A DNA stretch of 64,000 bases. It comes from Actinomycetota bacterium. Lineage in GTDB: Bacteria > Actinomycetota > UBA4738 > HRBIN12. The notes under the pieces were generated by a model. It was not told the DNA's origin. It worked only from the letters and a program-made list of their open reading frames with translations, and did no database searches. The stretch is taken from assembly GCA_035691205.1 (NCBI GenBank), contig DASSJM010000061.1:15932-79931 (forward strand), read 5' to 3'. Shown here in pieces: positions 4,146-46,262 of this stretch (positions within the stretch are counted from its first letter, which is position 1; each line of letters opens with the position of its first letter). The position numbers and the translations under genes are program-made.

Positions 4146-5388
4146 GGTCTCGGATCCATCCACGGGAGCCGCGTCCGATCCCTGGCCCGCGTGGCCCGAC
4201 GGGTTCGCGGAGGCGGACCAGGACCGGCGCGCGCTCCTCGTGCTCGTCTCGCTCCGAGGTATCACGCCGCGCCGGCTCCTCGAGCTGGCCGTTCGATCCG
4301 GTACGGCCTCGGCCGCGTTGGCTGCCATCGGCCGCGGGGAGGCCGGCAGCGAGAAGGACCGGGCCTTCGCCTCCGCGCTCGACCCCGATGCGATCGCCGC
4401 GGCGGTCCGAGCCCGCGGCGCGCGGTTCGTACCCTGGGGAGATCCGGGGTATCCCGAGCAGCTCCGGTCGATCCACGACCCGCCTGCGGGGGTGTTCGTC
4501 GCCGGACCATCGCCGCCCGATGTGACGCGGGCCGTCGCCGTGGTGGGCGCGAGGCGATGCACCGAGCTCGGGCGCGAGCAGGCTCGAGAGGTGGGTCGCG
4601 GTCTCGGATCGGCGGGCGTCACCGTCGTCAGCGGCGCGGCACGCGGGATCGACGCCGCTGCGCACGAGGGCGCGCTGTCGGTGGGCGCGGCGACGCTCGC
4701 GGTGCTCGGATGCGGGCTCGACGTCGACTACCCGCCGGGGAACCGCCATCTCCTCCGCCGGATCCGGGCGAGCGGCGGCGTCGTGAGCGAGTACGCGCCA
4801 GGGGTGCCGCCGGACCCCTGGAACTTCCCCGCCCGCAACCGGATCGTCGCCGGCCTGTGCTCCGCGACGGTGGTCATCGAGGGTGCCGACGGTAGCGGCT
4901 CGCTGATCACCGCGGAGCACGCGATGGAGTTCGGGCGCGACGTCTTCGCTGTCCCGGGACCCGTGAACAGCCCTCTCGCGGCCGTGCCGCTGCGCCTGAT
5001 CCGGGACGGCGCCACGATGATCCGGGGCGCGGCGGACCTCCTCGACGATCTGGGTCTCGAGCCGGTCGGCGAGCCGCTCGGGGGGTCCGCCGACCTGTCG
5101 GCCGCCGACCGGGAGGTGCTCGACCGGCTCGCGGGCCCCACGCTGCCGGACCGCATCGCGGCCGAGATGGGCTCGACCGTGCCCGAGGTCGTGCAGGTCC
5201 TGATGCGGCTGGAGCTGCGTGGCTTCGTGCGGAGCGTGGGCGGTCGGTACGAGTCGACGCTGAAGGCGCGGTCCGCTCAGGCTCCCCCGCGGAGCAGCCG
5301 AAGCGCCCGCGGCACGCCCGCCGTCGACACCACGCGGACCGGCACGCCCTCGCGCGCCAACATGCTCGCGACCATGGAGGAGCGGTAG
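4135..5388 (+). CDS. dprA: DNA-processing protein DprA
   Basis: Rossmann-like DprA core (GxARGIDAAAH, GTxxxFP) plus a C-terminal winged-helix region. I chose the internal ATG at 4135 (MPAEV) over the ORF-track start at 4063, because 4063 overlaps comM by about 80 nt. The ORF's 3' end overlaps a convergent gene. Confidence 0.8.
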   Translation: MPAEVSDPSTGAASDPWPAWPDGFAEADQDRRALLVLVSLRGITPRRLLELAVRSGTASAALAAIGRGEAGSEKDRAFASALDPDAIAAAVRARGARFVPWGDPGYPEQLRSIHDPPAGVFVAGPSPPDVTRAVAVVGARRCTELGREQAREVGRGLGSAGVTVVSGAARGIDAAAHEGALSVGAATLAVLGCGLDVDYPPGNRHLLRRIRASGGVVSEYAPGVPPDPWNFPARNRIVAGLCSATVVIEGADGSGSLITAEHAMEFGRDVFAVPGPVNSPLAAVPLRLIRDGATMIRGAADLLDDLGLEPVGEPLGGSADLSAADREVLDRLAGPTLPDRIAAEMGSTVPEVVQVLMRLELRGFVRSVGGRYESTLKARSAQAPPRSSRSARGTPAVDTTRTGTPSRANMLATMEER

Positions 5389-6644
5389 CCGCTCGCGCAG
5401 ACGATCGTAGAGCGCACGGAGCGCGAGAAGGCGTCGGCCGAGTCGGGGACGTCTCCGACGAAGACGTGCCGGGATCCCTCGAGGTGGCCGGCGTCCCACT
5501 CCGTCTTCTGGCGCACGTCGACGACGTCCCCGGCCTCCCCGCGCCCGATCTCCGCCACGAGCTGCTCGACACCGATCGCGGGGTACGAGGCGGTCTCCCG
5601 GCCCGACGCCGCCCAGGTCGCGACCCCGCCCTCGAGGTGGCCGAGCACCGGATCCCACCCGATCCGGTGCAGCTGGGTCGAGGCCTCCACGAGCCCCTCG
5701 TGCGACTCCACCAGGAGGACGATCGGAGTGGCGAACGGGAGCAGCCACCCGACGTACGCCGCGAACGAGGGTTCGAGCGGGACGTTCAGCGAGCCCGGCA
5801 CGTGGGCGCCCGCGAAGTGGGAGCCGTTCCGCGTGTCCACGAGCCAGGCGCCGCCGGCGAGCGCCGCCGCCGCGTCGTCCACCGTCATCGCCGCCGGGAT
5901 CGGGACGGCGCCGAACACGGGCGGCCCGGCGCGGTTGATCGGCGCCATGTGCGCGTAGTAGTCCGGGTACGCCACCAGGCCGGCCAGCTGCTGCCGCACG
6001 AACGCCTCCTCGTCCAGGTCGGCCAGGGCCGGGTTCAGGTGTCGTTCGTCGCCGAGCGTGGAGGTGCGTTCGCTGCTGGGCGGCGCGCTCGCGCAGAAGC
6101 TTCCGGCGCCGTGGGTCGGCAGGAGCAGGACCTGGTCCGGGAGCGCGGAGAGCCGACGCATGGTCCGGAACTGGAGACGCGTGAGCTCGTCGGCGCGCTC
6201 GGGGCCGAGCAGGTCCGTCCGTCCGGCGCTCCCGACGATCAGGCTTCCTCCCGAGAACAGTGCGACGCCCTCGCCATCGAAGTCCCGCAACAGGTAGGAC
6301 GTGTGCTCGGGCGTGTGACCGGGCGTGGCGAGCGCCTCGAGGCTCCCGTCGCCGATCGAGATCCGCGTCCCGTCCTCAACCGGCGTCGTCGGGAAGGCGT
6401 AGCCGCCGGTCGCCGGAGCCAGGATCTCGGCGCCGGTCGCCACCCGGAGCTCCCCCGCCCCGGAGACGTAGTCGTTGTGGACGTGCGTCTCGATGACGTA
6501 TCGGATCCGCGCGTCGCGGGACCGTGCCGTCTCGACGAACCGATCGACGTCTCGCTGTGGGTCGATGACGGCGGCCTCGTCCCCCCAGGACACCACGTAG
6601 CTGTTGTCGCCGAGCCCGGGCGTGACGAACAGGTCGAGCTCCAT
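5277..6644 (-). CDS. MBL-fold metallo-hydrolase fused to two rhodanese domains (persulfide dioxygenase / sulfurtransferase-like)
   Basis: N-terminal MBL motif HVHNDYVSG...TPGHTPEH, followed by two rhodanese modules, the second with an active-site Cys loop (CASGYRS). I chose the internal ATG (MELDLF) because upstream of it the ORF is Arg/Pro-rich and looks non-coding. Confidence 0.75.
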   Translation of the reverse strand: MELDLFVTPGLGDNSYVVSWGDEAAVIDPQRDVDRFVETARSRDARIRYVIETHVHNDYVSGAGELRVATGAEILAPATGGYAFPTTPVEDGTRISIGDGSLEALATPGHTPEHTSYLLRDFDGEGVALFSGGSLIVGSAGRTDLLGPERADELTRLQFRTMRRLSALPDQVLLLPTHGAGSFCASAPPSSERTSTLGDERHLNPALADLDEEAFVRQQLAGLVAYPDYYAHMAPINRAGPPVFGAVPIPAAMTVDDAAAALAGGAWLVDTRNGSHFAGAHVPGSLNVPLEPSFAAYVGWLLPFATPIVLLVESHEGLVEASTQLHRIGWDPVLGHLEGGVATWAASGRETASYPAIGVEQLVAEIGRGEAGDVVDVRQKTEWDAGHLEGSRHVFVGDVPDSADAFSRSVRSTIVCASGYRSSMVASMLAREGVPVRVVSTAGVPRALRLLRGGA

Positions 6645-6722
6645 CCGCGCATCGTACGCTCGCCCCTTGCTTGAATGGCACCCGTCGCGTTGGTACAAGG
6701 TCGGAACCGAACCGGGAGGATC

Positions 6723-7655
6723 ATGACCGCCCGCGAGCTTCCCCCGACCGACGCAGCCCTGATCGAGGGCTTCGTCGACCATCTCAGACTCGAGCGGCAT
6801 CTCGCCGCCGCCACGGTCGAGGCCTACCGCCGCGATCTCACGCAGCTCGGGACGTTCCTGTCTCGGACGCGCCGCGGCCTGCGGGGAGCCGACCTCGATG
6901 ACCTCCGTCGGTTCCTCGCGCAGCTCACGACCCTCGGTTACGCGCGCGCGTCGATCGCCCGGCGGGTCGGGGCCATCCACACCTTCTATCGGTGGGCCCT
7001 GTCCACCGGGGAGGTCGATCGAGACCCCGCCCTGTTGCTCGGCAGGCCGAAGGTGATCTCACGTCTGCCGACCGTCCTGCGGGTTCCCGAGGCCGCGGCG
7101 CTGGTCGAGGCCCCATCCGCGGCGTCGGGCGTCGCCGACCTCGATCGGGCCGTTGCGCTCCGTGACCGGGCGATCCTGGAGCTCATGTACGGATCGGGGC
7201 TGCGCGTCTCCGAGGTCGCCGGCCTCACGCCGGACCGCGTGGACATCCGGCGAGGACGGGTGCTCGTGCTCGGGAAGGGCTCGAAGGAACGCGATGTGCC
7301 GATGTCCGATCCAGCACGGTTCGCGCTCGCCGAGTGGATCGCGCTGGGGCGCCCGCTGATGCTGCCCGAGGGCGGGGCCGAGGCTCTCTTCCTCAACCGC
7401 CGATCCCGGCCGATCGGACCGCGCGACGTTCGACGCCTTGTGGGACGATACGGAGGCTCCACGCTTGCCGGCCGCCGGGTGACCCCGCACACGCTGCGCC
7501 ACTCGTTCGCCACGCACCTGCTCGAGGGAGGAGCCGACATCAGGGTCGTCCAGGAGCTGCTGGGCCACGCGAGCGTGGCGACCACCCAGCGGTACACGCA
7601 CGTCACCCGCTCACGCCTGTTCGAGGCGTACGAGCGGAGCCATCCGAGGGCCTGA
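6723..7655 (+). CDS. xerC: Tyrosine recombinase XerC
   Basis: Catalytic signature [39 protein letters not shown] with an N-terminal SAM-like domain. A GGAGGA ribosome-binding site precedes the internal ATG at 6723. Confidence 0.9.
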
Positions 7656-8524: not shown

Positions 8525-8608
8525 TCGCTCGCGGCCGTGAGGTGCGTCACAGCCCGCCGCGACGTTAGGGACTAGGCTCCGGGCCGGTTCGACGATGGAG
8601 GTGACGAC

Positions 8609-9166: not shown

Positions 9167-9173
9167 GTACGAT

Positions 9174-11677: not shown

Positions 11678-11844
11678 GCGCGAGGCCCCGGGGGCCGCGG
11701 TGCATCGTCGCTGCTAGACTGCCCGCTCGCCGGCGCGGCTCGCGCCGAGCTCACACGCCCGGGGATCGCGCCCGGGGTCCCGGTCTTCGGCCGGGCCGGG
11801 CGCGAGATGAGACGGGCGGAGGACAACCGGAAGGAGGAAGCGCC

Positions 11845-12813
11845 GTGCCTGTCGTCACCAGGCGGGAGCTCCTCGAGGCAGGGGTCCACTTCGGGCACCA
11901 GACCAGGCGCTGGAACCCGAAGATGGGTCGGTACCTGTACGGGGAACGCTCCGGGATCTACATCATCGACCTCGAGAAGACCCTGACCGGGCTCGAGGAG
12001 GCGTACGCGTTCGCTCGCGATCTGGGCCGGAGGAGCGGGGTGGTCCTGTTCGTCGGGACCAAGAAGCAAGCCCAGGAGGTCATCACCGAGCACGCCGAGC
12101 GTGTCGGGATGCCCTCGGTCACCACGCGGTGGCTCGGCGGCATGCTCACCAACTTCCAGACGGTCTCGCGCCGGCTCCTGCGACTGCGCGAGCTCCGCGA
12201 GATGGAACGCACGGGCGCGTTCGACTTCCTCCCGAAGAAGGAGGCGATCCGGCTCCGGCACGAGAAGGAGAAGCTCGAGCGCAACCTCGGCGGGATGCAG
12301 AGCCTCGAGCGCCTGCCCGACGCGGTCTTCGTGATCGACACGAAGAAGGAGCAGATCGCGGTGAACGAGGCTCGCAAGCTGGGCCTGCCCGTCATCGCGA
12401 TCGTGGACACCAACTGCGATCCGGACGAGGTGGACTATGTGATCCCCGGCAACGACGACGCGATCCGTTCCGTCTCGCTCGTGACCCGGCTGATCGCCGA
12501 CGCGCTCCTGGAGGGTAAGCAGGTGGGCCGCGAGTCGATCGTCACCCGCGCCACCGGACCCGAGATCGAGCCCGAGCCCGAACCGGTGGCGGTTCCCGAG
12601 CCCGTGCCCGTCCCGTCTCCACCGGCCGACGGCGGCGGTCCGGCGACGCCGCCCACCACACCCGCCGACGTCCCGACCGCCGACGTCCCGACGCCCGAGG
12701 TCGTGACGCCCGAGGTCGTGACGCCCGAGGTCGTGACGCCCGAAGTCCCGACGCTCGAGGTCCCGACGCAGGCCGACGCAGGCGGGGACTCCATCGAGAA
12801 GGAAGAGGGTTGA
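11845..12813 (+). CDS. rpsB: 30S ribosomal protein S2 with C-terminal Pro/Glu/Val-rich repeat extension
   Basis: The N-terminus ([27 protein letters not shown]) is the canonical S2 N-terminus. The GTG start is preceded by AGGAGG. The roughly 90-aa C-terminal extension contains TPEVV repeats. Confidence 0.9.
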
Positions 12814-13430
12814 GCACCGCCATGACGGAGATCTCTGCTGGTTTGGTGAAGGAGCTTCGTGAGCTGTCCGGGGCGGGGATGATGGACTGCAAGCGCGCCC
12901 TCCAGGAGACGGGCGGGGACGTGCAGAAGGCGTTCGAGCTGCTCCGGCAGAAGGGCATCGCCTCGGCCGCGAAGCGGGCCGGGCGCGTCGCCAACCAGGG
13001 GCTGATCGAGTCCTACATCCACTTCAACAACACCGTCGGCACGATCGTCGAGGTCAACTGCGAAACGGACTTCGTCGCGAACACGGAGGAGTTCAAGCGG
13101 CTGGCCAAGGACCTCGCGCTGCACATCGCGAGCCCCGCCGCCCCGCGATTCGTCTCGCGAGAGGAGGTCTCACCCGAGGAGCTCGGATCCGAGCGGCAGG
13201 TCTTCGAGGCGCAGGCCAGGGAGATGGGCAAGCCCGACAACGTGATCCCCAACATCGTCGAGGGCAAGATGCAGGCCTTCTACGAGCAGAACGTCCTGCT
13301 GGACCAGCCATTCGTCAAGGACGACTCGAAGACGATCCAGCAACTCCTCGACGAGGTTGGGGCCAAGGTCGGCGAGAAGGTGGCGGTCCGCCGCTTCGTG
13401 CGGTACAAGCTCGGCGAGGAGACCGGGTAG
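12810..13430 (+). CDS. tsf: Elongation factor Ts (short form)
   Basis: UBA-like N-terminus ([20 protein letters not shown]) and the EF-Ts core; it overlaps the rpsB stop. Confidence 0.9.
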
Positions 13431-13439
13431 GGTACCGGC

Positions 13440-14192
13440 ATGCCGGAGGGCGACCAGACGCGCGAGGGCGAGGCACGGCCCCTGTACCACCGGGTCCTGC
13501 TGAAGCTCTCCGGCGATGCCTTCGCGCCCCCCGATACCGGGTACGGGATCTCGACGGATTCGACCGGGCTGCTCGCGCGAGAGCTCGCCGACGTGATCGA
13601 CCTCGGCGTGCAGTGTGCCGTCGTCGTGGGCGGGGGCAACATCTGGCGCGGCCGGCAGGCGCCGGGCATCGACCGAGCGCGGGCCGATTACATGGGGATG
13701 TTGGCCACCGTGATGAACGCGCTCGCCCTCCAGGACGCGCTCGAGAAGATCCACCTCCCGAGCCGCGTCCAGACCGCGATCCACATGGCGCAGGTCGCCG
13801 AGCCGTACATCCCGCTCCGCGCGATCCGCCACCTCGAGAAGGGGCGCGTCGTCGTGTTCGCGGCCGGGATGGGGGCGCCGTACTTCTCCACGGACACCAC
13901 CGCCGCCCAACGTGCGCTGGAGATCGGGGCGCAGGCCATCCTGAAGGGAACCAAGGTCGACGGCGTCTACACGGCCGACCCCCACGTCGATCCGACGGCG
14001 GAGCGCTTCGACTCGATCGAGTACCTGGACGTGCTGCGCGAGGGGTACCAGGTGATGGACGCGACGGCGATCAGCCTGTGCATGGAGAACCGGCTCCCCA
14101 TCATCGTCTTCGATTTCGCGCGCGAGGGGAACATCCGTCGGGCCGTGTCGGGCGAGCCGATCGGGACCCTGGTCCACGGAGGTGCCCGTTGA
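13440..14192 (+). CDS. pyrH: UMP kinase
   Basis: Motifs LLKLSGDAF...[10 protein letters not shown] and the usual position between tsf and frr. Confidence 0.9.
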
Positions 14193-14749
14193 CGGTGGAG
14201 ACCGCCCTCGCGGCGGCGGCGGAGAAGATGGACAAGGCGATCGGCGTCCTCAAGGACGAGCTGGGCGGGATCCGGACCGGCCGCGCCACGCCGGCGCTCC
14301 TTTCCCGGATCGTCGTCGACTACTACGGGACCCAGGTGCCGATCCAGCAGCTCGCATCGTTCTCGGTGCCCGAGCCGCGCACGCTGATGATCTCGCCGTT
14401 CGACAAGAACGCGATCGCCGCGATGGAGAAGGCGATCATGGCGAGCGACCTTGGCATCACGCCCGGGAACGACGGCGCCGTGATCCGGCTGTCGTTCCCC
14501 GCGCTCACCGAGGATCGCCGCAAGGAGCTCATCAAGGTCGTCCACCATCGGGGCGAAGAGGCACGCGTTGCGGTTCGGAACATCCGCCGGCACTCCAAGG
14601 ACGAGCTCGAGGGACTTGAGCGCGAGGGCGGCATCTCGGAAGATGACCTCGTGCGCTCCGAGAAGGAGCTCCAGAAGCTGACGGACAAGCACGTCGCCGA
14701 GATCGACGAGGTCGTGGCGCACAAGGACGCAGAGCTCAAGGAGATCTGA
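14189..14749 (+). CDS. frr: Ribosome recycling factor
   Basis: Frr signature (...[20 protein letters not shown]...). The start is a TTG at 14189 overlapping the pyrH stop; an in-frame GTG at 14195 is an alternative. Confidence 0.85.
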
Positions 14750-14751
14750 TC

Positions 14752-16272
14752 GTGCCCGACGACGAGGAGCGGAACGAGGGCGAGGAGCTCTTCGAGGACC
14801 TCGACAAGTTCTTCGCGCCGATCCAGGACGTCGACTGGCCCGAGGGCGCGCCGACCCGTCCCGCCGAACCGGCCCCCGCGCCACCGGCCGCCGCGCCGCC
14901 AGAGCGCGAACCCGAGCCCGAGCCGGCCCCCGAGCCCGTCGTCGAGCCGTTCGAGGAGGAGGTCTCCGAGGAGGCCCTGCCGGCTGCGCCCGCACCGTGG
15001 GAGGCCGAGGCGACGCGGGAAGAGGAGCAGGCGACCGACGCCGGCGTGGGGTCGTTCCTGTTCGAGGCGGAGGCCGAGGAGTACGAGGGGCTCGAGGGGG
15101 AGGCGGTGCGGATCGAGGCCGTCCCCGCCGGGCAGGCCGGTGGCGAGGACGAGGGCGTCGCCGAGCTCATCGAGGAGGCCGAGCCCGCGATCGAGGAGGC
15201 ACCCGACCTCGAGGCCGTGGAGGCCGCGGCCGAGCACTTCGCCGGCTCGATCCGCGAGGAGACCGGGCTCGAGGGGGAGGCGCCGGTCGCACCGGCGACG
15301 GAGGAGATCGCTATCGCGCAGCTGCTCGGGGAGGAGGGCGAGGGCGCGCCCGGCGAGCCCGAAGGGGCCAGGGCCGTCCGGGTCGGGGCCGAGGGTCTCG
15401 GCGGCCCGAGCTGGCAGGAGCCGACCGCGCTCGAGGTGGGCGCGGAGCAGGAGGGCCGAGGGCCGCGCGAGATGCCCACCCGCTTCCTCACGGGCATCGT
15501 CCTGGCGGGGCTCGCGATCGGCGCGATCTTGCTCGGGGAGGGCGCCTTCGCGATCTTCGCGGGCCTCGTCGTGCTGTTCGCGCAGGGGGAGCTCTACCTC
15601 GCGCTGCAGAAGCACCACTTCCAGCCGGCGACCGCCCTCGGGCTTGTGGCCGGCGCGCTGATCCTGGGGGCCGGGTACTACCGGGGCGAGGGCGCGATGC
15701 TGGCCGTGACCGCGCTCGCGACGTTCGCCACGTTCCTCTGGTACATGACGGTGCCGCCGCAGCACCGACGGAACATCGTGAGCAACGTGGCGCTGACGGT
15801 GCTGGGGATCGCGTACATCCCGCTCCTGGCCGCGTACGCGCTCGCCGTGCTGAAGCTGCCCGACGGCCAGGGGCTGGCGGTCGCCATCATCGGCCTCACC
15901 TTCGTCTACGACACCGCCGCCTTCGGGGTCGGGTACTTCTGGGGGAGCCGCCCGCTCGCCCCGAACGTGAGCCCGAAGAAGTCGTGGGAGGGCGCGATCG
16001 GCGCGACGCTCGTCACGATCGCGGTCGCGGTCGGCGTGGTCGCCCCCTCGGTCACGCTGCTCGACACGGTCGGACGCTCCGTGGGGCTGGCGCTCGTGGT
16101 CGCCATCTTCGCACCGCTCGGGGACCTGGCCGAGTCGCTGTTGAAGCGGGATCTGGGGATCAAGGACATGGGTGGCGTGCTGCCCGGTCACGGCGGGGTG
16201 CTGGATCGCATCGACTCGGTCCTGTTCGTCGCCCCGGCGGCCTTCCTCTACCTCCGGCTCATCCTGCTCTGA
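14752..16272 (+). CDS. cdsA: Phosphatidate cytidylyltransferase CdsA with a roughly 240-aa acidic low-complexity N-terminal extension
   Basis: The C-terminal 266 aa carry the CdsA signature (SWEGAIGA...GDLAESLLKRDLGIKDMGGVLPGHGGVLDRIDS). The N-terminal region is E/A/P-rich and in frame from a GTG at 14752. Confidence 0.8.
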   Translation: MPDDEERNEGEELFEDLDKFFAPIQDVDWPEGAPTRPAEPAPAPPAAAPPEREPEPEPAPEPVVEPFEEEVSEEALPAAPAPWEAEATREEEQATDAGVGSFLFEAEAEEYEGLEGEAVRIEAVPAGQAGGEDEGVAELIEEAEPAIEEAPDLEAVEAAAEHFAGSIREETGLEGEAPVAPATEEIAIAQLLGEEGEGAPGEPEGARAVRVGAEGLGGPSWQEPTALEVGAEQEGRGPREMPTRFLTGIVLAGLAIGAILLGEGAFAIFAGLVVLFAQGELYLALQKHHFQPATALGLVAGALILGAGYYRGEGAMLAVTALATFATFLWYMTVPPQHRRNIVSNVALTVLGIAYIPLLAAYALAVLKLPDGQGLAVAIIGLTFVYDTAAFGVGYFWGSRPLAPNVSPKKSWEGAIGATLVTIAVAVGVVAPSVTLLDTVGRSVGLALVVAIFAPLGDLAESLLKRDLGIKDMGGVLPGHGGVLDRIDSVLFVAPAAFLYLRLILL

Positions 16273-36815: not shown

Positions 36816-37931
36816 ATGTCCCATGACGTCCGACGAGCCAGGCACGGTATGACGCTCAAGCGCGTCGTCGGACTCGTCTTCTCCGTTGCGATCGTCGTCG
36901 GGATCTTCGCCTATGCGATCCCGCGCATCGCGGACTACTCAGCCGTCTGGGCGACGATCCAGAACCTCACGCCGATCGAGTTCGTATCGCTTCTCGCCGC
37001 GACGGTGCTGAACCTGTTCACGTACTGGCTCGCGAACATGGCGGCGCTGCCGGGGCTCCGTCTCGGGCCCGCCGCCGTCGTCACCCAGACGACCACGTCG
37101 GTGGCCAACACCCTGCCGGCGGGCGGGGCGATCGCGGTCGGACTCACGTTCTCCATCCTGCGGTCGTGGGGCTTCACGGCGCAGTCGATCACCCTGTACA
37201 TCGGGGTCACCGGCGTGTGGAACGTGTTCGTGAAGCTCGCCCTGCCGGTGGTCTCGTTGGCCTTGCTGGCTCTCACCGGGCAGGTGAGCCCGGCCCTGGT
37301 GGTGGCCTCGATCGTCGGGCTGGCGGTGTTGATCGTCGCGGTCGTCCTGTTCTCGCTCGCGCTGTCGAGCAAGGAGTTCGCGCGTCGGATCGGCGAGGGC
37401 CTCGGGCGGCTCGTGTCGTGGTTCCGCAAGCGCTTCCGCAAGGCGGCGGTCACGGGTTGGGGGGAGCACGCGGTCGCGTTCCGCAGACGGACGATCGTCC
37501 TGGTCGCCGGGCGCTGGATCAGGATCACCCTCACGACCATCGCGTCCCAGCTCGCGTTGTGGCTCGTCCTGCTGCTGTGCCTTCGCCACGTCGGGATCTC
37601 AGAGCAGGAGGTCTCCACCCTGCAGACCCTGGCCGTGTTCGCGTTCGGCCGGCTGCTCGGGGCGATCCCGATCACGCCGGGTGGCCTCGGCGTGATCGAG
37701 CTCGGGTACATCGGCGGACTGGTGGCGGCCGGCGGGAACGAGGCCCAGGTGGTGGCGGCGGTCCTGCTGTTCCGCGCGCTGACCTACGGGATCCAGATCC
37801 CGATCGGCGCGTTCACGTACCTGATCTGGCGCGCGAAGCGGAGCTGGAGGCTGGAGATCCACCCCGACATCGCCGGGGAGGCCCAGCTCGAGCCCGAGGC
37901 CGAGGTCGGAACCGACTTCCTCCCCGCGTAG
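36816..37931 (+). CDS. Flippase-like membrane protein (lysylphosphatidylglycerol synthase TM-region / UPF0104 family)
   Basis: About 370 aa with about eight TM helices. The C-terminal GRLLGAIPITPGGLGVIELGYIGGL motif is characteristic of the MprF-like translocase domain. The start is the ATG at 36816 or at 36849. Confidence 0.6.
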   Translation: MSHDVRRARHGMTLKRVVGLVFSVAIVVGIFAYAIPRIADYSAVWATIQNLTPIEFVSLLAATVLNLFTYWLANMAALPGLRLGPAAVVTQTTTSVANTLPAGGAIAVGLTFSILRSWGFTAQSITLYIGVTGVWNVFVKLALPVVSLALLALTGQVSPALVVASIVGLAVLIVAVVLFSLALSSKEFARRIGEGLGRLVSWFRKRFRKAAVTGWGEHAVAFRRRTIVLVAGRWIRITLTTIASQLALWLVLLLCLRHVGISEQEVSTLQTLAVFAFGRLLGAIPITPGGLGVIELGYIGGLVAAGGNEAQVVAAVLLFRALTYGIQIPIGAFTYLIWRAKRSWRLEIHPDIAGEAQLEPEAEVGTDFLPA

Positions 37932-37932
37932 C

Positions 37933-38610
37933 TCATCCGTCGCGCACGCTCTCGCGCCGCCGCAGGGCGACGTCGTGGATCTCGGTCACCAGGGCGGCGC
38001 AGCCCAGGGCGATGCCGGTCCCGAGCAGGACGCCCGCGAGGACGTCGGAGAACCAGTGCGCGAGAAGGTAGACGCGCGAGCTCGCCATGACGAACGCGAA
38101 CGCGGCGGCCGCGAACTCCCATCGTCGACGTTTGGGCCCAGGCGCCAGCAGGACCAGGACGAACGCCACGGCGATCGAGGCACCGGCCACCGCGTGACCC
38201 GACGGGAAGGAGAACCCGACGGTCTCGACGAGCGAACCGGGCGGGCGCCCACGGTGGAAGAAGTCCTTGGCCACCAGCACGGTGATCTCGGCGACCGCCC
38301 AGGTCAGGAGCCAGGTGGCGAGCGCTCGCCAGCGCGTCCTGGACAGGAGCCACAGCGCCACGACGATGCGGAACGGGATCGTGACCACGCCGCTCCCGAT
38401 GAGGTTGAGCAGGCGAGCCACGGCCGTGAGCGGCTCGTTCCGGATGTCGACCATCGCGTGGGAGATCGCGAGGTCCCATTCGCCCAGGAACGGCAGGGTG
38501 GTCTCCGGTGCCGCGGCGGGTGGGTGGCGACCCACCGCGACGAAGACGAAGACCGTCGCTGCGAGGAGCGCGATCGCCCACCAGAAGGCCCGGCGGTGGT
38601 CGGTGAGCAC
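37933..38610 (-). CDS. PAP2 family lipid-phosphate phosphatase (membrane)
   Basis: All three PAP2 motifs are intact: KDFFHRGRPP, FPSGHA, SRVYLLAHWFSD. Confidence 0.8.
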   Translation of the reverse strand: MLTDHRRAFWWAIALLAATVFVFVAVGRHPPAAAPETTLPFLGEWDLAISHAMVDIRNEPLTAVARLLNLIGSGVVTIPFRIVVALWLLSRTRWRALATWLLTWAVAEITVLVAKDFFHRGRPPGSLVETVGFSFPSGHAVAGASIAVAFVLVLLAPGPKRRRWEFAAAAFAFVMASSRVYLLAHWFSDVLAGVLLGTGIALGCAALVTEIHDVALRRRESVRDG

Positions 38611-38613
38611 TTC

Positions 38614-39198
38614 TCAGTCCTCGCCCACGCACGGCGGGGCTTCGGCGCCGCAGAGCGTGAGTCCCCATCCCTCCTCGACGAGGTCCACCACCTCCGCCCT
38701 CGGCAGGAACGTCAGGGCGTCGTCGGCCTCGAACGCGAGCGTCGCGGCCTGCGCGACGTCGAGGAATCGGTATCGGTAGGTTACGCAGCCGCCGACGAAC
38801 ACGAAGTGCCGATCGGCGGCGTACGGGGTGACGCTGATCGATTCGCGGTACACCCGCACGTCGAGCTCGCCCGAGGCCCTCGTCACCTCCTCGAGGCCGG
38901 CGACGTCGCAGCTCGGCGCGAGCACGACCTCGACCGAGTGGATCCCGGCCCGGTCCGAGTCCAACCAGAACCGCGCGGTGCCGTTGCGCATCTCGGAGCC
39001 GCCGTATCCCCATCCCGGCGGGAACAGGCGGATACACGGGAGGAGCGTCGCCGAGGGGACGGATTGCGCCATCAAGATGAAGGGCGCCGCGTCGTCCGGC
39101 TGACACAGCACCTCCTCCGAACGCGCCGAGCCCGCCGCGCACCCTGAGAGCGTGACGGCGACCGCGATCAGGGCGAGGACCCTGGCCGATGGGCTCAC
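38614..39198 (-). CDS. Cys-rich lipoprotein of unknown function
   Basis: The GTG start overlaps the upstream stop (GTGA). A lipobox (AVAVTLSGC) is present. Six further Cys suggest disulfides, and third-position GC bias is strong. Confidence 0.55.
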   Translation of the reverse strand: MSPSARVLALIAVAVTLSGCAAGSARSEEVLCQPDDAAPFILMAQSVPSATLLPCIRLFPPGWGYGGSEMRNGTARFWLDSDRAGIHSVEVVLAPSCDVAGLEEVTRASGELDVRVYRESISVTPYAADRHFVFVGGCVTYRYRFLDVAQAATLAFEADDALTFLPRAEVVDLVEEGWGLTLCGAEAPPCVGED

Positions 39199-40880
39199 GC
39201 GAACACCGCCCAGTTGTTCACGACCAGCAGGAGCGCCAGCATGAGGACCAGCACGACCCCGAGCGTCAGGGTCACCCGGCGGATGCTCCAGCGCTGGATC
39301 GCTACCGGCGCACGGTCGGGGGCGAGCCGGCGGAAGCGTGCCAGCAGGTCCCGGCCGTCGCGCTTGAGGTGCGCCCGCAGCTGGGTGGGGCTCGCGACCC
39401 CGCGGGTCGCGGCGAACGCCTCGGCGAGTTCGTCCTCGGTGAAGAAACTCGTGGCCCGCTGGTAGACGCGGTCGGCGTCGGTGCGGAGCGCGAGGACCAG
39501 CATCATGTTGGCCAGGTCGACGGCCTGGCGCCACGGCGACGGACGGACCTGGACGAAGAAGACGTCGATCAGCTTGAGCTGGCCGTCCTGCACCATGAGG
39601 TTCGCCGGCTTGATATCTCGGTGGGCGAGCCCCTCGTCCCAGAGGCGTCGGACCAGCATGAGGCCCTGCTCGATGATCGAGTCGTCGACGTCCGCCTCGC
39701 TGATCTCGACGGCGCCGTCGAAGAACTCCATCACGATCATGTACTCGCGCTCGGGGGTGATCTCCACGACCCCGTACGGTGTGGGGGAGGGGAGCCCGAG
39801 GTCCTGTAGGAGCCGAAGGGTGTAGTCCTCGTACTCCACGAACCGCCGGACCGACGTGAACCGGCTCTCGTCCTCCAGGGCCCCGTACAGGATCGTCCGA
39901 CCGAGCTTGTACCAGCGGTCGGCGCGGACGTGGCTCTTCGCGTAGAGCTTGGCGAACAGGTACCGCTCGGGCTGGCCGCCGCCGGCGGCGATGCGCAGCC
40001 GCAAGGGGGTGGAGCCACCCGAGGCCTCCAGCCCGACCGGCTTCAGGTCGAGCACCTCCATGTCGAGCTGGTCGCGCACCCCCGCGACGATCGCCTCGCC
40101 CCGACGACCCCCGACGTCCAGGTGCGCGGCCTTGCCCCTCCCATAGGTCACGGGGAAGACGTCGTTCGGCGTGAACAGGCGGAAGGCGACCAGACCGATC
40201 GCGACCCCGAAGATCGCCCCGAACACGGCGTCCGTTGGGAACTCGACGGCCAGGTAGATGCGCGCGAGCCCGACCAGCCCGAGGACGATCCCGATCGCCC
40301 ACTTGGTCCGGTAGCGGGGCCGCCCCGGCACGACCAGGCAGTAGGCCATGCCGATCAGCGTCACCGCGAGCCCGGCCATCGGCCGTGATGGCATCGAGAA
40401 GTCCTCCCAGGAGGCGAGGATCCTGACATCGAGGGGTCGCGGGCGGCCCATGACGACCGACAGGTCGTAGGCCAGCACACCGGTGACGATCAGTGCGCCG
40501 AGGAACACGAACAGATGCCGCCACCTCCGAAAGGCGATCAGGGCGCCGATGGTCCCCCATCGCAGGATCCGGATCGTCCAGCTCAGCGCCAGCACGTTCA
40601 CGAGCTTCATCGCATCGGTGAGCCACGGGGTCCGCAGCTCGGCGATCCACCGGAGCACGGCGGACTCCAAGCGCTGGAACACGTCCGCCACCGTGGGGAG
40701 CAGCAGGGCGCCGGCGAACACGAGCAGGAAGTAGCCGGCCATGATCAGCCAGAAGCGTCCGGACCGCCCCAGGTCTCTCGGGAGCGGCGGCGGCTCGCCG
40801 GAGGGCCGACGACGCCGGGTCCGGCCACCGGGCAGGTGCCGCTCGTCGGCGACGACTCGAGGATCCCGGGCGGCGTCCAT
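39195..40880 (-). CDS. Membrane protein fusing a degenerate PAP2-like domain to an ePK/Kdo-type protein kinase-like domain
   Basis: The N-terminal 6-TM region has PAP2-like motifs with the catalytic residues substituted (GRPRP; PSRP instead of PSGH; ARIYLAVEFPTD, with His replaced by Glu). The C-terminus has a kinase fold (FAKLY lysine, catalytic loop HRDIKPANLMV, LIDVFF in place of DFG) and a terminal TM helix. Confidence 0.7.
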   Translation of the reverse strand: MDAARDPRVVADERHLPGGRTRRRRPSGEPPPLPRDLGRSGRFWLIMAGYFLLVFAGALLLPTVADVFQRLESAVLRWIAELRTPWLTDAMKLVNVLALSWTIRILRWGTIGALIAFRRWRHLFVFLGALIVTGVLAYDLSVVMGRPRPLDVRILASWEDFSMPSRPMAGLAVTLIGMAYCLVVPGRPRYRTKWAIGIVLGLVGLARIYLAVEFPTDAVFGAIFGVAIGLVAFRLFTPNDVFPVTYGRGKAAHLDVGGRRGEAIVAGVRDQLDMEVLDLKPVGLEASGGSTPLRLRIAAGGGQPERYLFAKLYAKSHVRADRWYKLGRTILYGALEDESRFTSVRRFVEYEDYTLRLLQDLGLPSPTPYGVVEITPEREYMIVMEFFDGAVEISEADVDDSIIEQGLMLVRRLWDEGLAHRDIKPANLMVQDGQLKLIDVFFVQVRPSPWRQAVDLANMMLVLALRTDADRVYQRATSFFTEDELAEAFAATRGVASPTQLRAHLKRDGRDLLARFRRLAPDRAPVAIQRWSIRRVTLTLGVVLVLMLALLLVVNNWAVFA

Positions 40881-40978: not shown

Positions 40979-41833
40979 GTGACGGTGGACGACGCGAAGA
41001 AGGCGAAGGCCCACAAGCATCGCGACGTCGAGGATCGCAACAGTCGCCTGCCCAAGAAGGCCTACGAGAAGGAGCTGCGGCGCCTCCAGGAGGAGCTCGT
41101 CAAGCTCGAGGACTGGGTCGCGGCCGTCGGTGCCCGCATCGTGGTGGTGTTCGAGGGTCGGGACGCCGCGGGCAAGGGCGGCACGATCAAGCGGATCACG
41201 CAGTACATGAACCCCCGGATCACCCGGATCGCCGCCCTGCCCAAGCCGACGGAGCGAGAGCGCACGCAGTGGTACTTCCAGCGCTACATCGACCAGCTAC
41301 CCGCGGCCGGCGAGATCGTCCTGTTCGACCGTAGCTGGTACAACCGGGCCGGCATCGAGAAGGTGCTCGGGTTCTGCACCCCCGATGAGCACCGTCGGTT
41401 CCTTCGCCAGTGCCCGATCGTGGAGCGACTGATCGTGGAGGACGGGATCACCCTCCTGAAGTACTGGTTCTCCGTCTCGGACGAGGAGCAGGAGCGCCGC
41501 TTCCGGGCTCGGATCGACGATCCGATCCGGCGGTGGAAGCTCTCCGACACCGACCTGTACTCGCGCTCGCGCTGGGTCGACTACTCCAGGGCGAAGGACG
41601 AGATGTTCGTCCACACGGATATCCCCGAGGCCCCCTGGTACCTCGTCGAGGCCGACGACAAGCCGAGCGCGCGGCTGAACTGCATCGCCCACCTCCTGTC
41701 CCAGATCCCGTACGAGCCGGTGCGGCACGATCGGCTCGCCGTTCCGGAACGGCAGTCGGACGAGGGGTACGTCCGCCCGCCCCGCGAGGCGTTCACGTAC
41801 GTGCCGGACCACGCGGCCACGCTGCTCGCCTGA
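40979..41833 (+). CDS. Polyphosphate kinase 2 (PPK2) family protein
   Basis: Walker A (FEGRDAAGKGGTIKR) and the PPK2 lid motifs (LFDRSWYNRAGIE...KYWFSVS...RRW). Confidence 0.85.
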   Translation: MTVDDAKKAKAHKHRDVEDRNSRLPKKAYEKELRRLQEELVKLEDWVAAVGARIVVVFEGRDAAGKGGTIKRITQYMNPRITRIAALPKPTERERTQWYFQRYIDQLPAAGEIVLFDRSWYNRAGIEKVLGFCTPDEHRRFLRQCPIVERLIVEDGITLLKYWFSVSDEEQERRFRARIDDPIRRWKLSDTDLYSRSRWVDYSRAKDEMFVHTDIPEAPWYLVEADDKPSARLNCIAHLLSQIPYEPVRHDRLAVPERQSDEGYVRPPREAFTYVPDHAATLLA

Positions 41834-42798: not shown

Positions 42799-43899
42799 AT
42801 GGCCCCACGCCACGCCCGCCGCACCCGCTTCCCCTTCGCCCTGGTCGTCGCGATCCTTGCCGTGGCCGCGGCGGCGGCCTGGTTCCTCGGGGGTCGCGAG
42901 GGTACCGACGCCGAGGCGGGAGCGGTCCCGGGAGCCGGCGGGGGCTCGGCGACGGGTACCGCGACGGGGAGCACGGCCGACCTCGCCGGTGACTCGCCCG
43001 ACGCTGCGCTCACCCCCGCGCCCGAGGCGACCCCGGCCTCCGAGCCGAGAGGGAAGCTCGTGATCCACGGGACCGGCGACGTGAGCCTGGACCCCTCGTA
43101 CATCCCGGCGCTCGCAACCAACGGGTACGGCTGGGCCTGGAGCGGCCTCGATGGTCTCTTCCGGGACGACGATCTCACGATCGTCAATCACGAATGCCCC
43201 TCGACGGACATCGTCGCGCCGATCTCGAAGACCTTCGTGTTCCGGTGCGACCCGCGGGCGCTGGATGAGGCGCTCGCGGCCGGCGTCGAGGTGGCGAACC
43301 TCGCGAACAACCACGGATACGATCAGGGTCCGGACGGCCTGTTGGATTCGATCCGGAACATGCGGCGGGCGGGCGTGCTTCCGGTGGGCGCGGGGGAGGA
43401 CGCGACCACGGCCGACGCCCCCCGGTACGTCGAGGTCAAGGGGTGGCGGATCGCGATCGTCGGCGTCGGAGAGGTCCTGGACCCGCTGACGCAGGTCGCG
43501 ACCGAGGACCGGCCGGGGACGGCGGTCGGCCACGAGTTCGGCCGGGCGCTCCGAGCGATCCGCGAGGCTGAGGCCGAGGCCGACCTGGTGCTCGTGACGA
43601 TCCATTGGGGGATCGAGCTCGACACCCAGCCCCGCGATTACCAGGTCCAGGAGGCCCGCGCGATGATCGACGCCGGGGCCGACGCGATCTTCGGTCACCA
43701 CTCGCACCGGCTGCAGCCGATGGACACGTACCAGGGCCGGCCGATCTTCTACGGCCTCGGGAACTTCGTGTGGCCCAGGTTCTCGGTCGAGGGCTCGACG
43801 ACGGCGGTCGCCCGCGTGGTGGTGCGTCCCGACGGCACGATCACGGGCACGCTCCTGCCCGCCGAGATCGTCTCGGACGGCCACCCGGTCCTTCGGTAG
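42799..43899 (+). CDS. CapA family metallophosphoesterase-like protein (poly-gamma-glutamate synthesis CapA/PgsA-like), membrane anchored
   Basis: An N-terminal TM anchor, then the calcineurin-like motifs (HGTGD...NHEC...NLANNHGYD...GHHSH). Confidence 0.75.
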   Translation: MAPRHARRTRFPFALVVAILAVAAAAAWFLGGREGTDAEAGAVPGAGGGSATGTATGSTADLAGDSPDAALTPAPEATPASEPRGKLVIHGTGDVSLDPSYIPALATNGYGWAWSGLDGLFRDDDLTIVNHECPSTDIVAPISKTFVFRCDPRALDEALAAGVEVANLANNHGYDQGPDGLLDSIRNMRRAGVLPVGAGEDATTADAPRYVEVKGWRIAIVGVGEVLDPLTQVATEDRPGTAVGHEFGRALRAIREAEAEADLVLVTIHWGIELDTQPRDYQVQEARAMIDAGADAIFGHHSHRLQPMDTYQGRPIFYGLGNFVWPRFSVEGSTTAVARVVVRPDGTITGTLLPAEIVSDGHPVLR

Positions 43900-43979: not shown

Positions 43980-46262
43980 GTGAGCACATCGCTCGGTCCG
44001 GGCGGCCGATTCGGCGACTACACGATCGCCTCGATGCTCGGCCGCGGGGGGATGAGCGTGGTCTACCTGGCCGAGGACCGTCGGCTCGGCCGCCAGGTGG
44101 CGATCAAGGTCCTCGCCGAGGAGCTCGCCGAGGACGAGTCCTTCCGCACCCGGTTCATCCGGGAGTCCCAGCTCGCGGCCGGCCTGGAGCATCCCAACAT
44201 CGTCCCCGTGTACGAGGCGGGCGAGCTCGAGGGACACCTGTTCATCGCGATGCGGTACGTCCGCGGTACCGACCTGCGCACGCTGATCTCCCGCGAGGGT
44301 CCTCTCGCCCCCGATCGTGCCTTGGCCCTGCTCCGGCCGATCGCCGCGGCGTTGGATGCCGCGCATCGCCGCGGATTGGTCCATCGAGACGTGAAGCCCG
44401 CCAACATCCTCGTGGCGATCGACGAGGGGGAGGAGCACCCCTACCTGTCGGACTTCGGGCTCACGAAGCACGTCTCGTCCAAGAGCGGCCTCACCAAGAC
44501 CGGGCAGTTCATGGGGACGGTCGACTACGTCGCGCCCGAACAGATCCGCGGGGAAGAGGTCGATGGCCGTACCGACGAGTACTCGCTCGCGTGCGTCCTC
44601 TACCAGTGCCTGACCGGCGAGGTGCCGTTCGACAAGCAGGCGGACGTCGCCACGATGTTCGGGCACCTGCAGGATCCGCCTCCGAGGGTCTCGGCGCGGC
44701 GACCCCTGGTCCCGTCCGGTCTCGACGACGTCGTGATCCGGGGCATGTCGAAGGAGCGCGAGGACCGGTTCCCGACGTGCACGGCCATGATGGAGGCGCT
44801 CAACACCGCGGTCGGGCTCCCGTCCCTGCCTCGCGAGCAGCCCTCGATCGACCCGTCGATCGTGGCGATGCCGCCCCAGCCCGGTACCGGACCGCTGCTC
44901 CCGGCCGCCCCCGCGACGCCGTCCGGGCCGTCCGCGACGCCTCCGTCGGGCACGAGCACCGTTCGGGTGCCGGCCGCCGCGCCCTCGCCCCCTCGGGGCA
45001 CGAGCCGGCGCGCCCTCCTGATCGGCGGCCTCGCCGCGGTCGCCGTCGTCGTCGTCGTCGTCCTGGTCGTGCTGTCGTCCGGCGGCGAGGAGCCCGTGCC
45101 CGGTCCGGGACCGACGGGTGAGACCGCCCCGGGCTCCGCCTTCGCGAACGAGCGGCCGATGGACATCCCCGGCGCCGGGATCACGGCCCCGTACCCCTCG
45201 TCGATCGAGGTCGCCGACCTCTCCGGCACGATCGACGACGTGAACGTGACGATCCACGGGTTCGCTCACGCGTTCCCCCGCGACGTGGACCTCGTCCTGG
45301 AGGGACCCGGCGGCCAGACGGTCTTCCTCATGGAGGGGATCGGTGGACCCGAGGGGGTGAGCGGGCTGACGATCACGTTCGACGACGCCGCACCTTCCCT
45401 GCCCTCCTCGAGGGCGCTGTCGAGCGGGAGCTTCCGGCCGACGACCGCCGTGGGCGACGGGTTCGGGTTCAACGGGCCGCCGCCCGCTCCCGAGCCGCCC
45501 TACGGACTGGACCTGTCCGTGTTCAACGGCACCGATCCGAACGGTACGTGGAACCTGTTCCTGTTCGACGACTCGCAGGGGTCCGGCGGCCAGATCGCCG
45601 GCGGCTGGAGCCTGGACATCGAGCTCGCCGGCCCGACGACGACCGGCGCGACGGGATCCACCGGCGCCACCGGCCCCTCGGGCGAGGTCATCTTCACCGA
45701 CGACTTCTCTGACCCCGCGTCCGGGTGGGACGTGTTCGACGAACCCAGGCAGCACGGCGGCTACCAGGACGGCGAGTACGTGCTCGGCGTGGTGGGCGGG
45801 CTCCGCGTGGTGGGGGACTTCAACACCTCGACCCAGGAGTTCGCCACGCTGGGGGACGTGCGGGTGGAGGCGACCGGCCGGATGCTCACGCCGGAGAGGG
45901 ATTCGGTGTACGGGGTGGTCTGTCGGGCCGCGACCGCCGACGACTACTACTACTTCCTGATCGGGGGCAACGGGAAGTACTTCATCGGGGAGAACGATGC
46001 GACCGGGGCGACGAACTTCGACGTCGGGGTCTCGCCCGCGGTGGTCCGTGGTCGCGGGCCGAACCGGATCGTCGCGGAGTGCATCGACGGACCCGAAGGG
46101 GTGATCCTGCGGATGATCGTCAACGGCATCTCGGTCAACACGGTGGTGGACGCGGTCGAGCCGATCGCCTCGGGCGCGACCGGGTTCCGTGTGGACTCGG
46201 GGGGCTCCGACGCGGAGGCGGCGTTCGACGACTACGTGCTGAGCGCGCCTTCGAGCCCCTGA
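43980..46262 (+). CDS. Transmembrane Ser/Thr protein kinase with extracellular proprotein-convertase P-domain and a ConA-like beta-sandwich domain
   Basis: Hanks kinase domain (GRGGMSVVY...AIKVL; [10 protein letters not shown]; DFG; APE), a TM segment ([20 protein letters not shown]), then a P-domain-like region ([26 protein letters not shown]...) and a C-terminal jelly-roll-like domain. Confidence 0.85.

Follow-up and report, generated by a model that had tools for sequence, protein, structure and literature searches.

A family of Actinomycetota membrane proteins joining a PAP2 fold without its catalytic residues to a protein-kinase-like domain

Introduction

What use does a membrane kinase have for a lipid phosphatase fold that has lost its catalytic residues? 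The question is raised by a gene at positions 39195..40880 (minus strand; open reading frame with an ATG start) of a 64,000-nucleotide stretch from an Actinomycetota bacterium (assembly GCA_035691205.1, contig DASSJM010000061.1, positions 15,932 to 79,931), here called the window. It encodes a pseudo-PAP2/kinase membrane protein of 561 residues, recognised by Pfam PAP2 and RIO1/Pkinase matches and by an AlphaFold2 (AF2) model. The identical protein (P0001) is found in an NCBI ‘Actinomycetota bacterium’ metagenome-assembled genome. The chain runs from an N-terminal tail (N-tail) through a fold of six transmembrane (TM) helices of the PAP2 type, without the catalytic His and Lys residues, to a kinase-like domain and a final TM helix. 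We tentatively favour the reading that this protein is the core of a receptor-type kinase, in which the pseudo-PAP2 domain and a lipoprotein domain would sense lipid phosphates or the state of the envelope. The function of the whole module is most likely to report on, or to control, lipid-phosphate handling in the cell envelope.

An earlier note on this DNA had not recognised the domain combination as a described family, and the searches bear this out. The combination of PAP2 and kinase is not described in the curated families (Pfam, NCBIfam) or in the literature searched, and the nearest precedent is a survey remark on fusions of kinases with PplT proteins. Literature searches on PAP2 and kinase fusions, on pseudo-PAP2 sensors and on PAP2 with Bud32 or RIO found nothing relevant, and neither the bacterial Ser/Thr kinase (bSTK) atlas nor a pseudokinase review mentions PAP2 in its text. 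The lipocone paper and the Esr ‘pseudophosphatase’ paper were considered as precedents and set aside as unrelated or silent on PAP2.

Family size and conservation

The family comprises at least 8000 clusters at 90% identity, and 531 clusters at 50% identity with E<=1e-30. The target shares 62-79% identity with more than 100 full-length relatives and 39-61% with 38 distant ones. Most members are classified as ‘uncultured Actinomycetota’, and this is a large family, so far without description, of soil Actinomycetota. Residue counts given below were taken from an alignment of 253 family sequences, consisting of close relatives, the 38 distant representatives and the orthologues and paralogues of 80 genomes. 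Architectures were read from the best 150 of 2940 representative matches. The target carries the complete family signature: the tail RRRPSGEPPPLP, the His-less PAP2 fold, the kinase motifs and IQRWSxRR followed by a TM helix. Within it, the kinase signature reads GSxGSTP...FAKLY...HRDIKPxN...IDVxF...WRQAVDLANMM. The kinase half is conserved far above the PAP2 half, with mean pairwise identities of 0.54 and 0.29, respectively, among 39 diverse members. The PAP2 and kinase matches of the target are both far above chance level.

The PAP2-like half

A six-TM PAP2-fold domain that lacks the Lys of motif C1 and the His of motifs C2 and C3 occupies residues 39-237 (40170..40766, minus strand). Pfam PAP2 (PF01569) matched residues 124-237 with 30.5 bits against a gathering score of 27.2. 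A phmmer search of PDB sequences recovered B. subtilis PgpB/YodM (5jki, E 7e-7) and LpxE (E 4e-4). The AF2 model, built from 60 family sequences, had a mean predicted local distance difference test score (pLDDT) of 77.7 and a predicted template modelling score (pTM) of 0.56, and placed helices at residues 39-60, 64-80, 85-116, 120-144, 166-182, 187-209 and 215-236 of this half. That the N-terminal half has the PAP2 fold, as the earlier note had proposed from the spacing of three motifs, is beyond reasonable doubt.

All three motifs have decayed at their catalytic positions. In an alignment with PgpB and with the PAP2 protein of the same operon, C1 (KxxxxxxRP) reads VVMGRPRP, the Lys being lost; the remnant GRPRP lies at 40434-40448 (minus strand). 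The position of the Lys falls on Asp139 or Ser141, depending on the alignment, and the respective family columns hold N/Q/L or S/T/A. C2 (PSGH) reads PSRP (residues 164-167; 40380-40391, minus strand), and its His column holds Pro in 223/253 sequences and His in 0/253. C3 (SRxxxxxHxxxD) reads ARIYLAVEFPTD (residues 206-217; 40230-40265, minus strand) with Glu213 at the position of the nucleophile His, a column with Asp in 228/253, Glu in 14/253 and His in 0/253. The replacements in motifs 2 and 3 had been seen in the earlier note, and the alignment to PgpB and to the 253 relatives upholds both; the His-free columns also dispose of its own caveat, a misalignment of the motifs. The loss of the PAP2 catalytic His is thus, on this alignment, a trait of the family and not a sequencing accident. 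A His is found one residue further on, directly after the C3 nucleophile column, in 161/253 sequences (‘VDHPSD’), where the target has Phe. A few relatives have a His right before Pro-Ser, where the target has Met.

The current database name of the target is that of a phosphatase. Since all three tests for catalytic residues failed, phosphatase activity by the usual mechanism is not expected of the domain, and we suggest that the protein should not be filed as one.

Although catalysis is lost, the residues of the pocket are conserved within the clade of the target. Remnants of the phosphate clamp were retained (R146 in 237/253, R148 in 232/253, R207 in 234/253), as were those of C2 and C3 (P164 in 249/253, S165 in 239/253, P167 in 223/253, Asp or Glu at 213 in 242/253). 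Among the 39 diverse members, the best-conserved columns of the PAP2 half are found in cytoplasmic loops, at R119, R121, G186 and R189 (window ~40312-40526, minus strand). The loops RRWRH and PGRPR outrank the outward-facing pocket in conservation. This pattern hints that the universally conserved role of the domain may be contact with the kinase, with the tail or with head groups of the inner leaflet.

The kinase-like half

The C-terminal half carries a predicted cytoplasmic protein-kinase-like domain (residues 255-528; 39297..40118, minus strand), and residues ~255-528 take a bilobal kinase fold in the AF2 model. The kinase motifs and terminal TM helix listed in the earlier note are all present. 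They are the beta3 Lys motif FAKLY (K311; 39942-39956), the catalytic loop HRDIKPAN (residues 420-427; 39600-39623) and the metal-binding DVF (residues 439-441; 39558-39566), followed by RPSPWRQAVDLANMM, all on the minus strand. The glycine-rich loop of the target reads GLEASGGST, and a glycine/serine-rich loop, GSxGSTPLR, is conserved in the family. The key residues are near invariant: K311 (251/253), D422 (251/253), K424 (250/253), N427 (251/253), D439 (252/253) and the alphaF Asp, D455 (252/253). A pseudokinase was ruled out, as the catalytic residues are all conserved across the 253 sequences.

Assignment to a known kinase family was less clear. Pfam RIO1 (PF01163) matched with 23.3 bits, a borderline pass over its gathering score of 22, and many relatives have a precomputed PF01163 match. 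Pkinase (PF00069) reached 28.1 bits, under its gathering score of 31.7, and only residues 383-439 were matched. Kdo/WaaP (PF06293), at 13 bits, stayed under its cut-off, and APH and ABC1 likewise scored under Pkinase and RIO1. The best NCBIfam match was Bud32 (TIGR03724) with 26.3 bits against a cut-off of 125, and Rio1 scored 17.8 bits against 480. A PDB search with a profile of 19 diverse kinase domains recovered, with similar strength, Bud32 (1.5e-6) and Rio2 (3e-6) along with ordinary protein kinases (at 3e-6 or weaker), and a structure comparison placed small-molecule kinases among the best matches. RIO proteins are marked by an STGKEA nucleotide loop, an HGDLSEYN-type catalytic loop and an N-terminal RIO helix, and Bud32 by a loop of the type HGDLTTSN. 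Both the RIO signature loops and the Bud32 signature motifs are absent from the target, which has GSGGSTPLR and HRDIKPAN at those places. We therefore rejected a standard Kdo/WaaP kinase and a Bud32 or RIO orthologue, as their scores were below or far below the curated cut-offs and their signature loops differ. The Kdo-like label of the earlier note has to be withdrawn in favour of a catalytic loop of the eukaryotic protein kinase type, HRDxKxxN, combined with a short activation segment like that of Bud32 and RIO. The kinase half is an orphan branch of the protein-kinase-like (PKL) superfamily.

Two features of this half point in different directions. The loop HRDIKPAN has the form of Ser/Thr protein kinases, with a Lys two residues after the catalytic Asp (K424); to our knowledge, APH, choline-kinase, RIO, Bud32 and Kdo kinases lack a Lys at this position. 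Between the metal-binding D439 and the alphaF Asp455 there are only 16 residues, no APE motif is found and DVF stands for DFG. With a gap this short there is no normal activation loop, a Bud32/RIO-like condition. The kinase half could be an ATPase switch like RIO, Bud32 or UbiB, whose ATP hydrolysis would drive or gate translocation by the flippase-like PplT protein encoded nearby, act on the partner PAP2, or both, with the pseudo-PAP2 domain as a docking subunit. Besides the very short activation segment, this is consistent with the fusion of related kinases to PplT and with the cytoplasmic loops being the most conserved part of the pseudo-PAP2 half. It is, nevertheless, an improbable reading. 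The catalytic loop is HRDIKPAN, not HGDLSEYN or HGDLTTSN, there is no STGKEA loop, and the NCBIfam Bud32 and RIO scores are far under their cut-offs (26 vs 125 bits). In addition, the fusions to regulators and the invariant RRRPS motif, both described below, suggest phosphotransfer to protein.

The lipoprotein partner

Directly downstream of the target gene lies a lipoprotein gene (38614..39198, minus strand) encoding 194 residues with the lipobox LSGC and seven invariant Cys. Its GTG start overlaps the TGA stop of the kinase gene (GTGA), so that the two are translationally coupled. It matched no Pfam or NCBIfam family. A homologue of the lipoprotein was found directly downstream in 78/83 loci, including distant loci with other surroundings. 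In about 12 of the 150 representatives listed, of 680-740 residues, a domain homologous to the lipoprotein follows the C-terminal TM helix within the same chain. The lipoprotein and the fused domain of one of these (P0121) share 47% identity over 149 residues (E 7e-33), and hhalign related it to a distant representative (P0184) with E 4e-6. On this homology the lipoprotein is the detached extracytoplasmic domain of the same putative receptor. The extracytoplasmic LMAQxVPSA...PC...GW / GGCV domain typical of the family is thus also found in the target system, where it is encoded immediately downstream. Its fold resembles extracytoplasmic binding or sensor proteins, namely LpqN, DcrB, RseB/MucB and PsbP, and more weakly the PknH sensor.

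The N-tail, the C-terminal helix and topology

The N-tail contains the motif RRRPSGEPPPLP (residues 23-34; 40779..40814, minus strand), found by conservation and with its coordinates checked. Its residues are conserved among the 253 sequences as follows: R24 in 247, R25 in 248, P26 in 249, S27 in 236 (with Thr in 7 more), G28 in 247, L33 in 242 and P34 in 240. The model gave residues 1-34 a pLDDT below 50 and showed the tail as disordered. The motif ranks with the most invariant features of the family. The RRRPS27G tail looks like a phosphorylation site of a basophilic Ser kinase or a docking motif.

At the other end, a TM helix (residues 533-555; 39216..39284, minus strand) follows the conserved IQRWSxRR and was recognised by hydropathy, the AF2 helix and conservation. 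The N-tail is strongly basic, and basic loops follow TM2 (FRRWRH) and TM4 (PGRPRYRTK). From this positive-inside distribution and the PgpB-like fold we infer that the N-terminus and the kinase are cytoplasmic, whereas the lipoprotein domain and the pocket of the PAP2 fold lie outside. The kinase would be held between TM6 and the C-terminal TM helix at 533-555. With the C1-C3 remnants outside and the kinase inside, the pocket and the kinase active site would lie on opposite sides of the membrane, which counts against a kinase acting on a lipid held in the dead pocket. The earlier note had suggested that the protein either senses or phosphorylates a membrane lipid phosphate. The sensing part fits the evidence, but phosphorylation of a lipid phosphate held by the PAP2 domain is topologically awkward, with the pocket in the outer leaflet and the kinase in the cytoplasm.

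Fusions, paralogues and a sister architecture

Some family members carry additional regulatory domains at the N-terminus. A STAND NTPase with a MalT-like tetratricopeptide repeat (TPR) array was found in four representatives of ~1370-1400 residues (P0123, P0125, P0126, P0134), and a receiver (REC) domain with a LuxR-type helix-turn-helix (HTH; GerE) in two of ~760 residues (P0135, P0136). Since P0123 and P0135 each occur on several contigs, the regulator fusions are not single assembly artefacts. The tail RRRPSGEPPPLP is kept between the extra domains and TM1 in all STAND and REC-HTH fusions. At L084 2978-6633 (GCA_009772855.1), the gene of a REC-HTH-pseudoPAP2-kinase (P0136) is preceded by a histidine-kinase gene (HATPase_c) that runs into its start. 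This arrangement would be a two-component system with its response regulator covalently attached to the membrane kinase module.

A second pseudo-PAP2-kinase paralogue, with 44-55% identity, was found in about 15/80 related genomes between the flippase-like gene and truB, mostly at ~12150-13800 of the loci listed. A dozen of these have intact frames (L016, L017, L020, L024, L030, L043, L044, L046, L054, L062, L067, L068). The second paralogue has the same His-less motifs and C-terminal TM helix, and has no extracytoplasmic lipoprotein partner of its own.

A sister chain of 769-798 residues stands beside family members in two loci (L086, L087) and unites an intact PAP2 (67 bits), a kinase and a C-terminal PplT domain. 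Its PAP2 motifs KxxxxxxRP, SGH and RxxxxxHxxxD are present, and its kinase loop reads HRDLVxxN. Chains of this kind, of ~770-810 residues, were located at L086 1505-3901 (plus strand), L087 2605-4914 (minus), L090 7001-9430 (plus) and L088 7001-9394 (plus). The sister chain has 359 relatives, including proteins of cultured Geodermatophilus spp., Nocardia wallacei (797 residues) and Trujillonella humicola, all of them generically named. In Nocardia a second PAP2 gene overlaps the start of the PAP2-kinase-PplT gene. The kinase halves of sister chain and target are distantly related, with 25-26% identity and E 2e-8 to 4e-11.

A true member of the target family is also found in Geodermatophilus sp. 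SYSU D00691 (45% identity over 446 residues, E 7e-93), with PAP2 remnants decayed beyond Pfam detection. It belongs to a cluster at 4555-16019 of locus L090 (GCA_054050275.1) comprising the decayed pseudo-PAP2-kinase (547 residues; 5248..6891), a PAP2-kinase-PplT chain (809 residues), a PplT gene, a PAP2 gene, a second kinase-PplT chain (804 residues) and a WS/DGAT acyltransferase. The 226-residue gene downstream of this homologue showed no homology to the lipoprotein domain.

The intact PAP2 and the flippase-like gene

The third gene of the operon encodes a standalone PAP2 lipid phosphatase of 225 residues (37933..38610, minus strand; Pfam PAP2 62.8 bits), which starts 3 nucleotides past the lipoprotein stop. 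Its three motifs, KDFFHRGRP, PSGH and SRVYLLAHWFSD, are intact, as the earlier note had said; that note also called the gene adjacent to the target, but it is next but one, with the lipoprotein gene between. It showed weak NCBIfam matches to PgpB/SepP, and all PAP2 motifs are intact in 64/77 of its orthologues. In one family member (P0162), the chain of pseudo-PAP2, kinase, TM and outer domains is preceded by a fused orthologue of this protein (43% identity, E 1e-35).

Converging on the PAP2 gene with a gap of 1 nucleotide is a gene for a PplT/LPG_synthase_TM membrane protein (36816..37931, plus strand; ATG start at 36816 or 36849), MprF-flippase-like and of the YbhN family (PF03706 70.2 bits; TIGR00374). 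A PplT-family gene adjoins the module in most of the 80 loci. In the close clade the block lies between truB and ribF in nearly all 80 genomes; as this synteny is partly inherited, we relied on distant contexts and on fusions. PplT and PAP2 neighbours were found together in five independent contexts: L081, the P0184 contig (with an overlapping start), L086, L087 and L090. The fusion to an active PAP2 in P0162 and these neighbours link the module functionally to lipid-phosphate handling.

The same partners could instead serve a lipid kinase in a transmembrane phosphate cycle. A lipid of the inner leaflet, e.g. polyprenol, polyprenyl phosphate, diacylglycerol or phosphatidate, would be phosphorylated, PplT would move the product outward, and the active PAP2 would hydrolyse it or use it as a phosphate donor, while the pseudo-PAP2 and lipoprotein domains held the lipid or the acceptor. 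The use of a lipid as phosphate donor by a PAP2-type enzyme is known from LpxT. The sister chains do unite kinase and PplT with an intact PAP2, the best structural matches include small-molecule kinases, and the conserved cytoplasmic loops and the tail are rich in Arg, which would suit the binding of anionic head groups. Known PplT/UPF0104 systems also couple a cytoplasmic head-group modifier with a flippase (MprF; GpgSDF, PMC12713373). Even so we think a lipid kinase unlikely, if the least so among the alternatives. HRDxKxxN with an invariant Lys424 is typical of protein Ser/Thr kinases and not of the known PKL-fold small-molecule kinases, and a metabolic enzyme would hardly be expected to have N-terminal fusions to DNA-binding regulators and a two-component partner. 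An extracytoplasmic domain after a single TM helix is the layout of receptor kinases, and the PAP2-like pocket lies on the membrane face opposite the kinase. In a broader form of the idea, which we regard as quite improbable, the module would move phosphoryl groups or lipid-phosphate information across the membrane: the PKL-fold kinase would phosphorylate a lipid inside, PplT would export it, and PAP2, pseudo-PAP2 and lipoprotein would use or read it outside. The product formed inside may be a polyprenyl or diacylglycerol pyrophosphate, for example.

Genomic surroundings

The module is inserted in a translation-related backbone (window 27775-50327) with the order proS - nusA - infB - DHH/NrnA-like - truB - [module] - PPK2 - ribF - ... 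- pnp - M16 peptidase. The polyphosphate kinase 2 (PPK2) gene (40979..41833, plus strand; 342 bits) diverges from the target across a 98-bp spacer; as a partner of the module it was rejected, since relatives have it now on one side of the module, now on the other, or lack it. Two genes away from the module, past ribF and a PGA_cap/CapA-like gene (42799-43899), is a canonical Hanks Ser/Thr kinase with a TM segment (43980-46262, plus strand; Pkinase 158 bits). Its C-terminal region of ~400 residues past the TM segment has no Pfam match.

No Rfam family reached its threshold anywhere in the 64-kb window, and a regulatory RNA was rejected. A scan for promoters and terminators returned 0 promoters; the 1 terminator-like site, within the lipoprotein gene, was at chance level. 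A role in anti-phage defence was also rejected, as PADLOC gave only generic kinase matches (PD-T4-6, PglW fragments) and none for the partners.

Proposed mechanism

Three features make the receptor-kinase reading the preferred one: a catalytic loop with the Lys, the layout of a receptor and the fusions to regulators. The layout itself is evident from the ectodomain that follows a single TM helix in relatives, present here in a split, translationally coupled form. Since the clamp Arg residues (R146/R148, R207) and the C2 Pro-Ser are kept, with Asp or Glu in place of the nucleophile His, the outward pocket would bind a lipid phosphate or pyrophosphate rather than hydrolyse it. The ligand would probably be the substrate or product of the partner PAP2, e.g. 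polyprenyl pyrophosphate or phosphate, or phosphatidylglycerol phosphate or phosphatidate. A ligand in the pocket may, in concert with the lipoprotein domain, shift the packing of TM6 and the C-terminal TM helix, which would clamp the kinase on both sides. The same signal may alter the conserved cytoplasmic loops (R119, R121, G186, R189) and so switch the kinase, which would then phosphorylate protein targets. These may be the RRRPS27G tail, either partner (PAP2 or flippase) or, where fused, the REC-LuxR or STAND-TPR regulators. Turnover of envelope lipid phosphates would in this way be coupled to regulation.

Several observations weigh against this proposal. The kinase half has no activation loop, and related kinases are covalently joined to a flippase-like domain and an active PAP2, which suggests an enzyme or transport machine more than a sensor. 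The topology is predicted only, and the inter-domain confidence of the AF2 model is modest (pTM 0.56). The target lacks even the shifted His of its relatives, having Glu-Phe where most carry Asp-His. Across diverse members the pocket remnants decay, and they are fully gone in the Geodermatophilus member, while the cytoplasmic loops persist; ligand binding in the pocket can therefore not be the universal role of the domain. These last points would be expected of a receptor kinase whose PAP2 fold is a relic, kept as an anchor or a dimerisation scaffold (for example for pairing with the active PAP2), with the lipoprotein domain as the sole sensor and the dead pocket empty. The poor conservation of the PAP2 half (0.29 mean identity), the loss of the pocket in distant members, including a cultured one, and the missing shifted His all agree with such a scaffold. 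We give it little weight, as the remnant pocket residues are strongly conserved in the large clade of the target (R146 237/253, P164 249/253, Asp/Glu213 242/253) and a six-TM fold is retained family-wide where a single helix would do.

If the receptor-kinase reading is correct, there is a large family of bacterial membrane kinases, with thousands of sequence clusters, that uses a dead lipid phosphatase as a sensor. It would be a bacterial counterpart of the eukaryotic pseudo-phosphatase regulators, and a direct wire from the envelope lipid-phosphate or carrier-lipid cycle to Ser/Thr phosphorylation or transcription. A phosphoryl relay, if true, would instead mean a new class of lipid kinase and a previously unrecognised, ATP-fed extracytoplasmic phosphate relay. 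The Rosetta-stone fusions identify the partners involved, i.e. the active PAP2, the PplT flippase, the lipoprotein domain and the REC-LuxR or STAND regulators. They also offer a way into the function of the PplT/YbhN flippase-like family, which is poorly understood. As cultured Geodermatophilus and Nocardia contain relatives, these hypotheses are open to experiment. The loss of the C1 Lys, the coupled lipoprotein, the flippase-like partner, the regulator-domain fusions and the invariant RRRPSGEPPPLP were all additional to the earlier note.

Comparison with known systems

The bacterial PAP2 phosphatases (B. subtilis PgpB/YodM, 5jki/6fmx; A. aeolicus LpxE; E. coli PgpB) differ from the target, which is without the C1 Lys, C2 His and C3 His and is fused to a kinase. 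PAP2-fold membrane proteins without key catalytic residues that act as regulators and not as enzymes are known in vertebrates (PLPPR/PRG). Unlike the target, these are eukaryotic, have no kinase domain and carry another C-terminal tail, and they lost the residues independently.

With the Hanks receptor kinases (PknB-PASTA, PknH, PknD) the target has in common the layout of cytoplasmic kinase, single TM helix and extracytoplasmic sensor. The catalytic loop of PknB, HRD(I/V)KPAN, is nearly identical to that of the target, which also has the beta3 Lys and the metal-binding Asp. However, the target scores under the Pkinase gathering threshold, lacks the activation loop and APE, has DVF for DFG and carries a six-TM pseudo-PAP2 domain in front. 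RIO and Bud32 gave the best sequence, profile and structure matches of its C-terminal half, and the short segment from the metal-binding Asp to the alphaF Asp is common to the target (WRQAVDL) and Bud32 (KAVDL). They are, however, soluble factors associated with the ribosome or tRNA, whereas the target is an integral membrane protein with other signature loops.

Flux sensing of the Bce type, in which the kinase BceS together with the transporter BceAB reports on its partner at intermediates of the lipid II cycle, is similar in principle. It consists of a histidine kinase and an ABC transporter and has no homology to the target. An M. tuberculosis protein joins MviN (MurJ) to a pseudokinase, a TM helix and an extracellular domain, that is, a polytopic lipid-handling domain, a kinase fold, a TM helix and an ectodomain (PMC12599244). 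There the transporter is active and the kinase dead; in the target this appears to be reversed, and the membrane domains are unrelated. Together with the receptor kinases PknB and PknH, the PLPPR proteins and the kinase-PplT fusions, this protein provides the closest analogy to the target. Pairing of head-group modification with a flippase is found in the ‘modify inside, flip out’ system of the GpgSDF type (PMC12713373). Kinase domains fused N-terminally to PplT in Actinobacteria have been remarked on in a survey (preprint 10.1101/2022.03.11.483950). The partner of the target belongs to the same PF03706 family, but the target has a single C-terminal TM helix in place of PplT. The PAP2-kinase-PplT chains differ from the target in turn, which has a dead PAP2, a Lys-containing loop and an extracytoplasmic partner domain. 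Compared with all of these, what would be new is the combination of a receptor kinase, a pseudo-enzyme as its sensor module and a defined set of partners.

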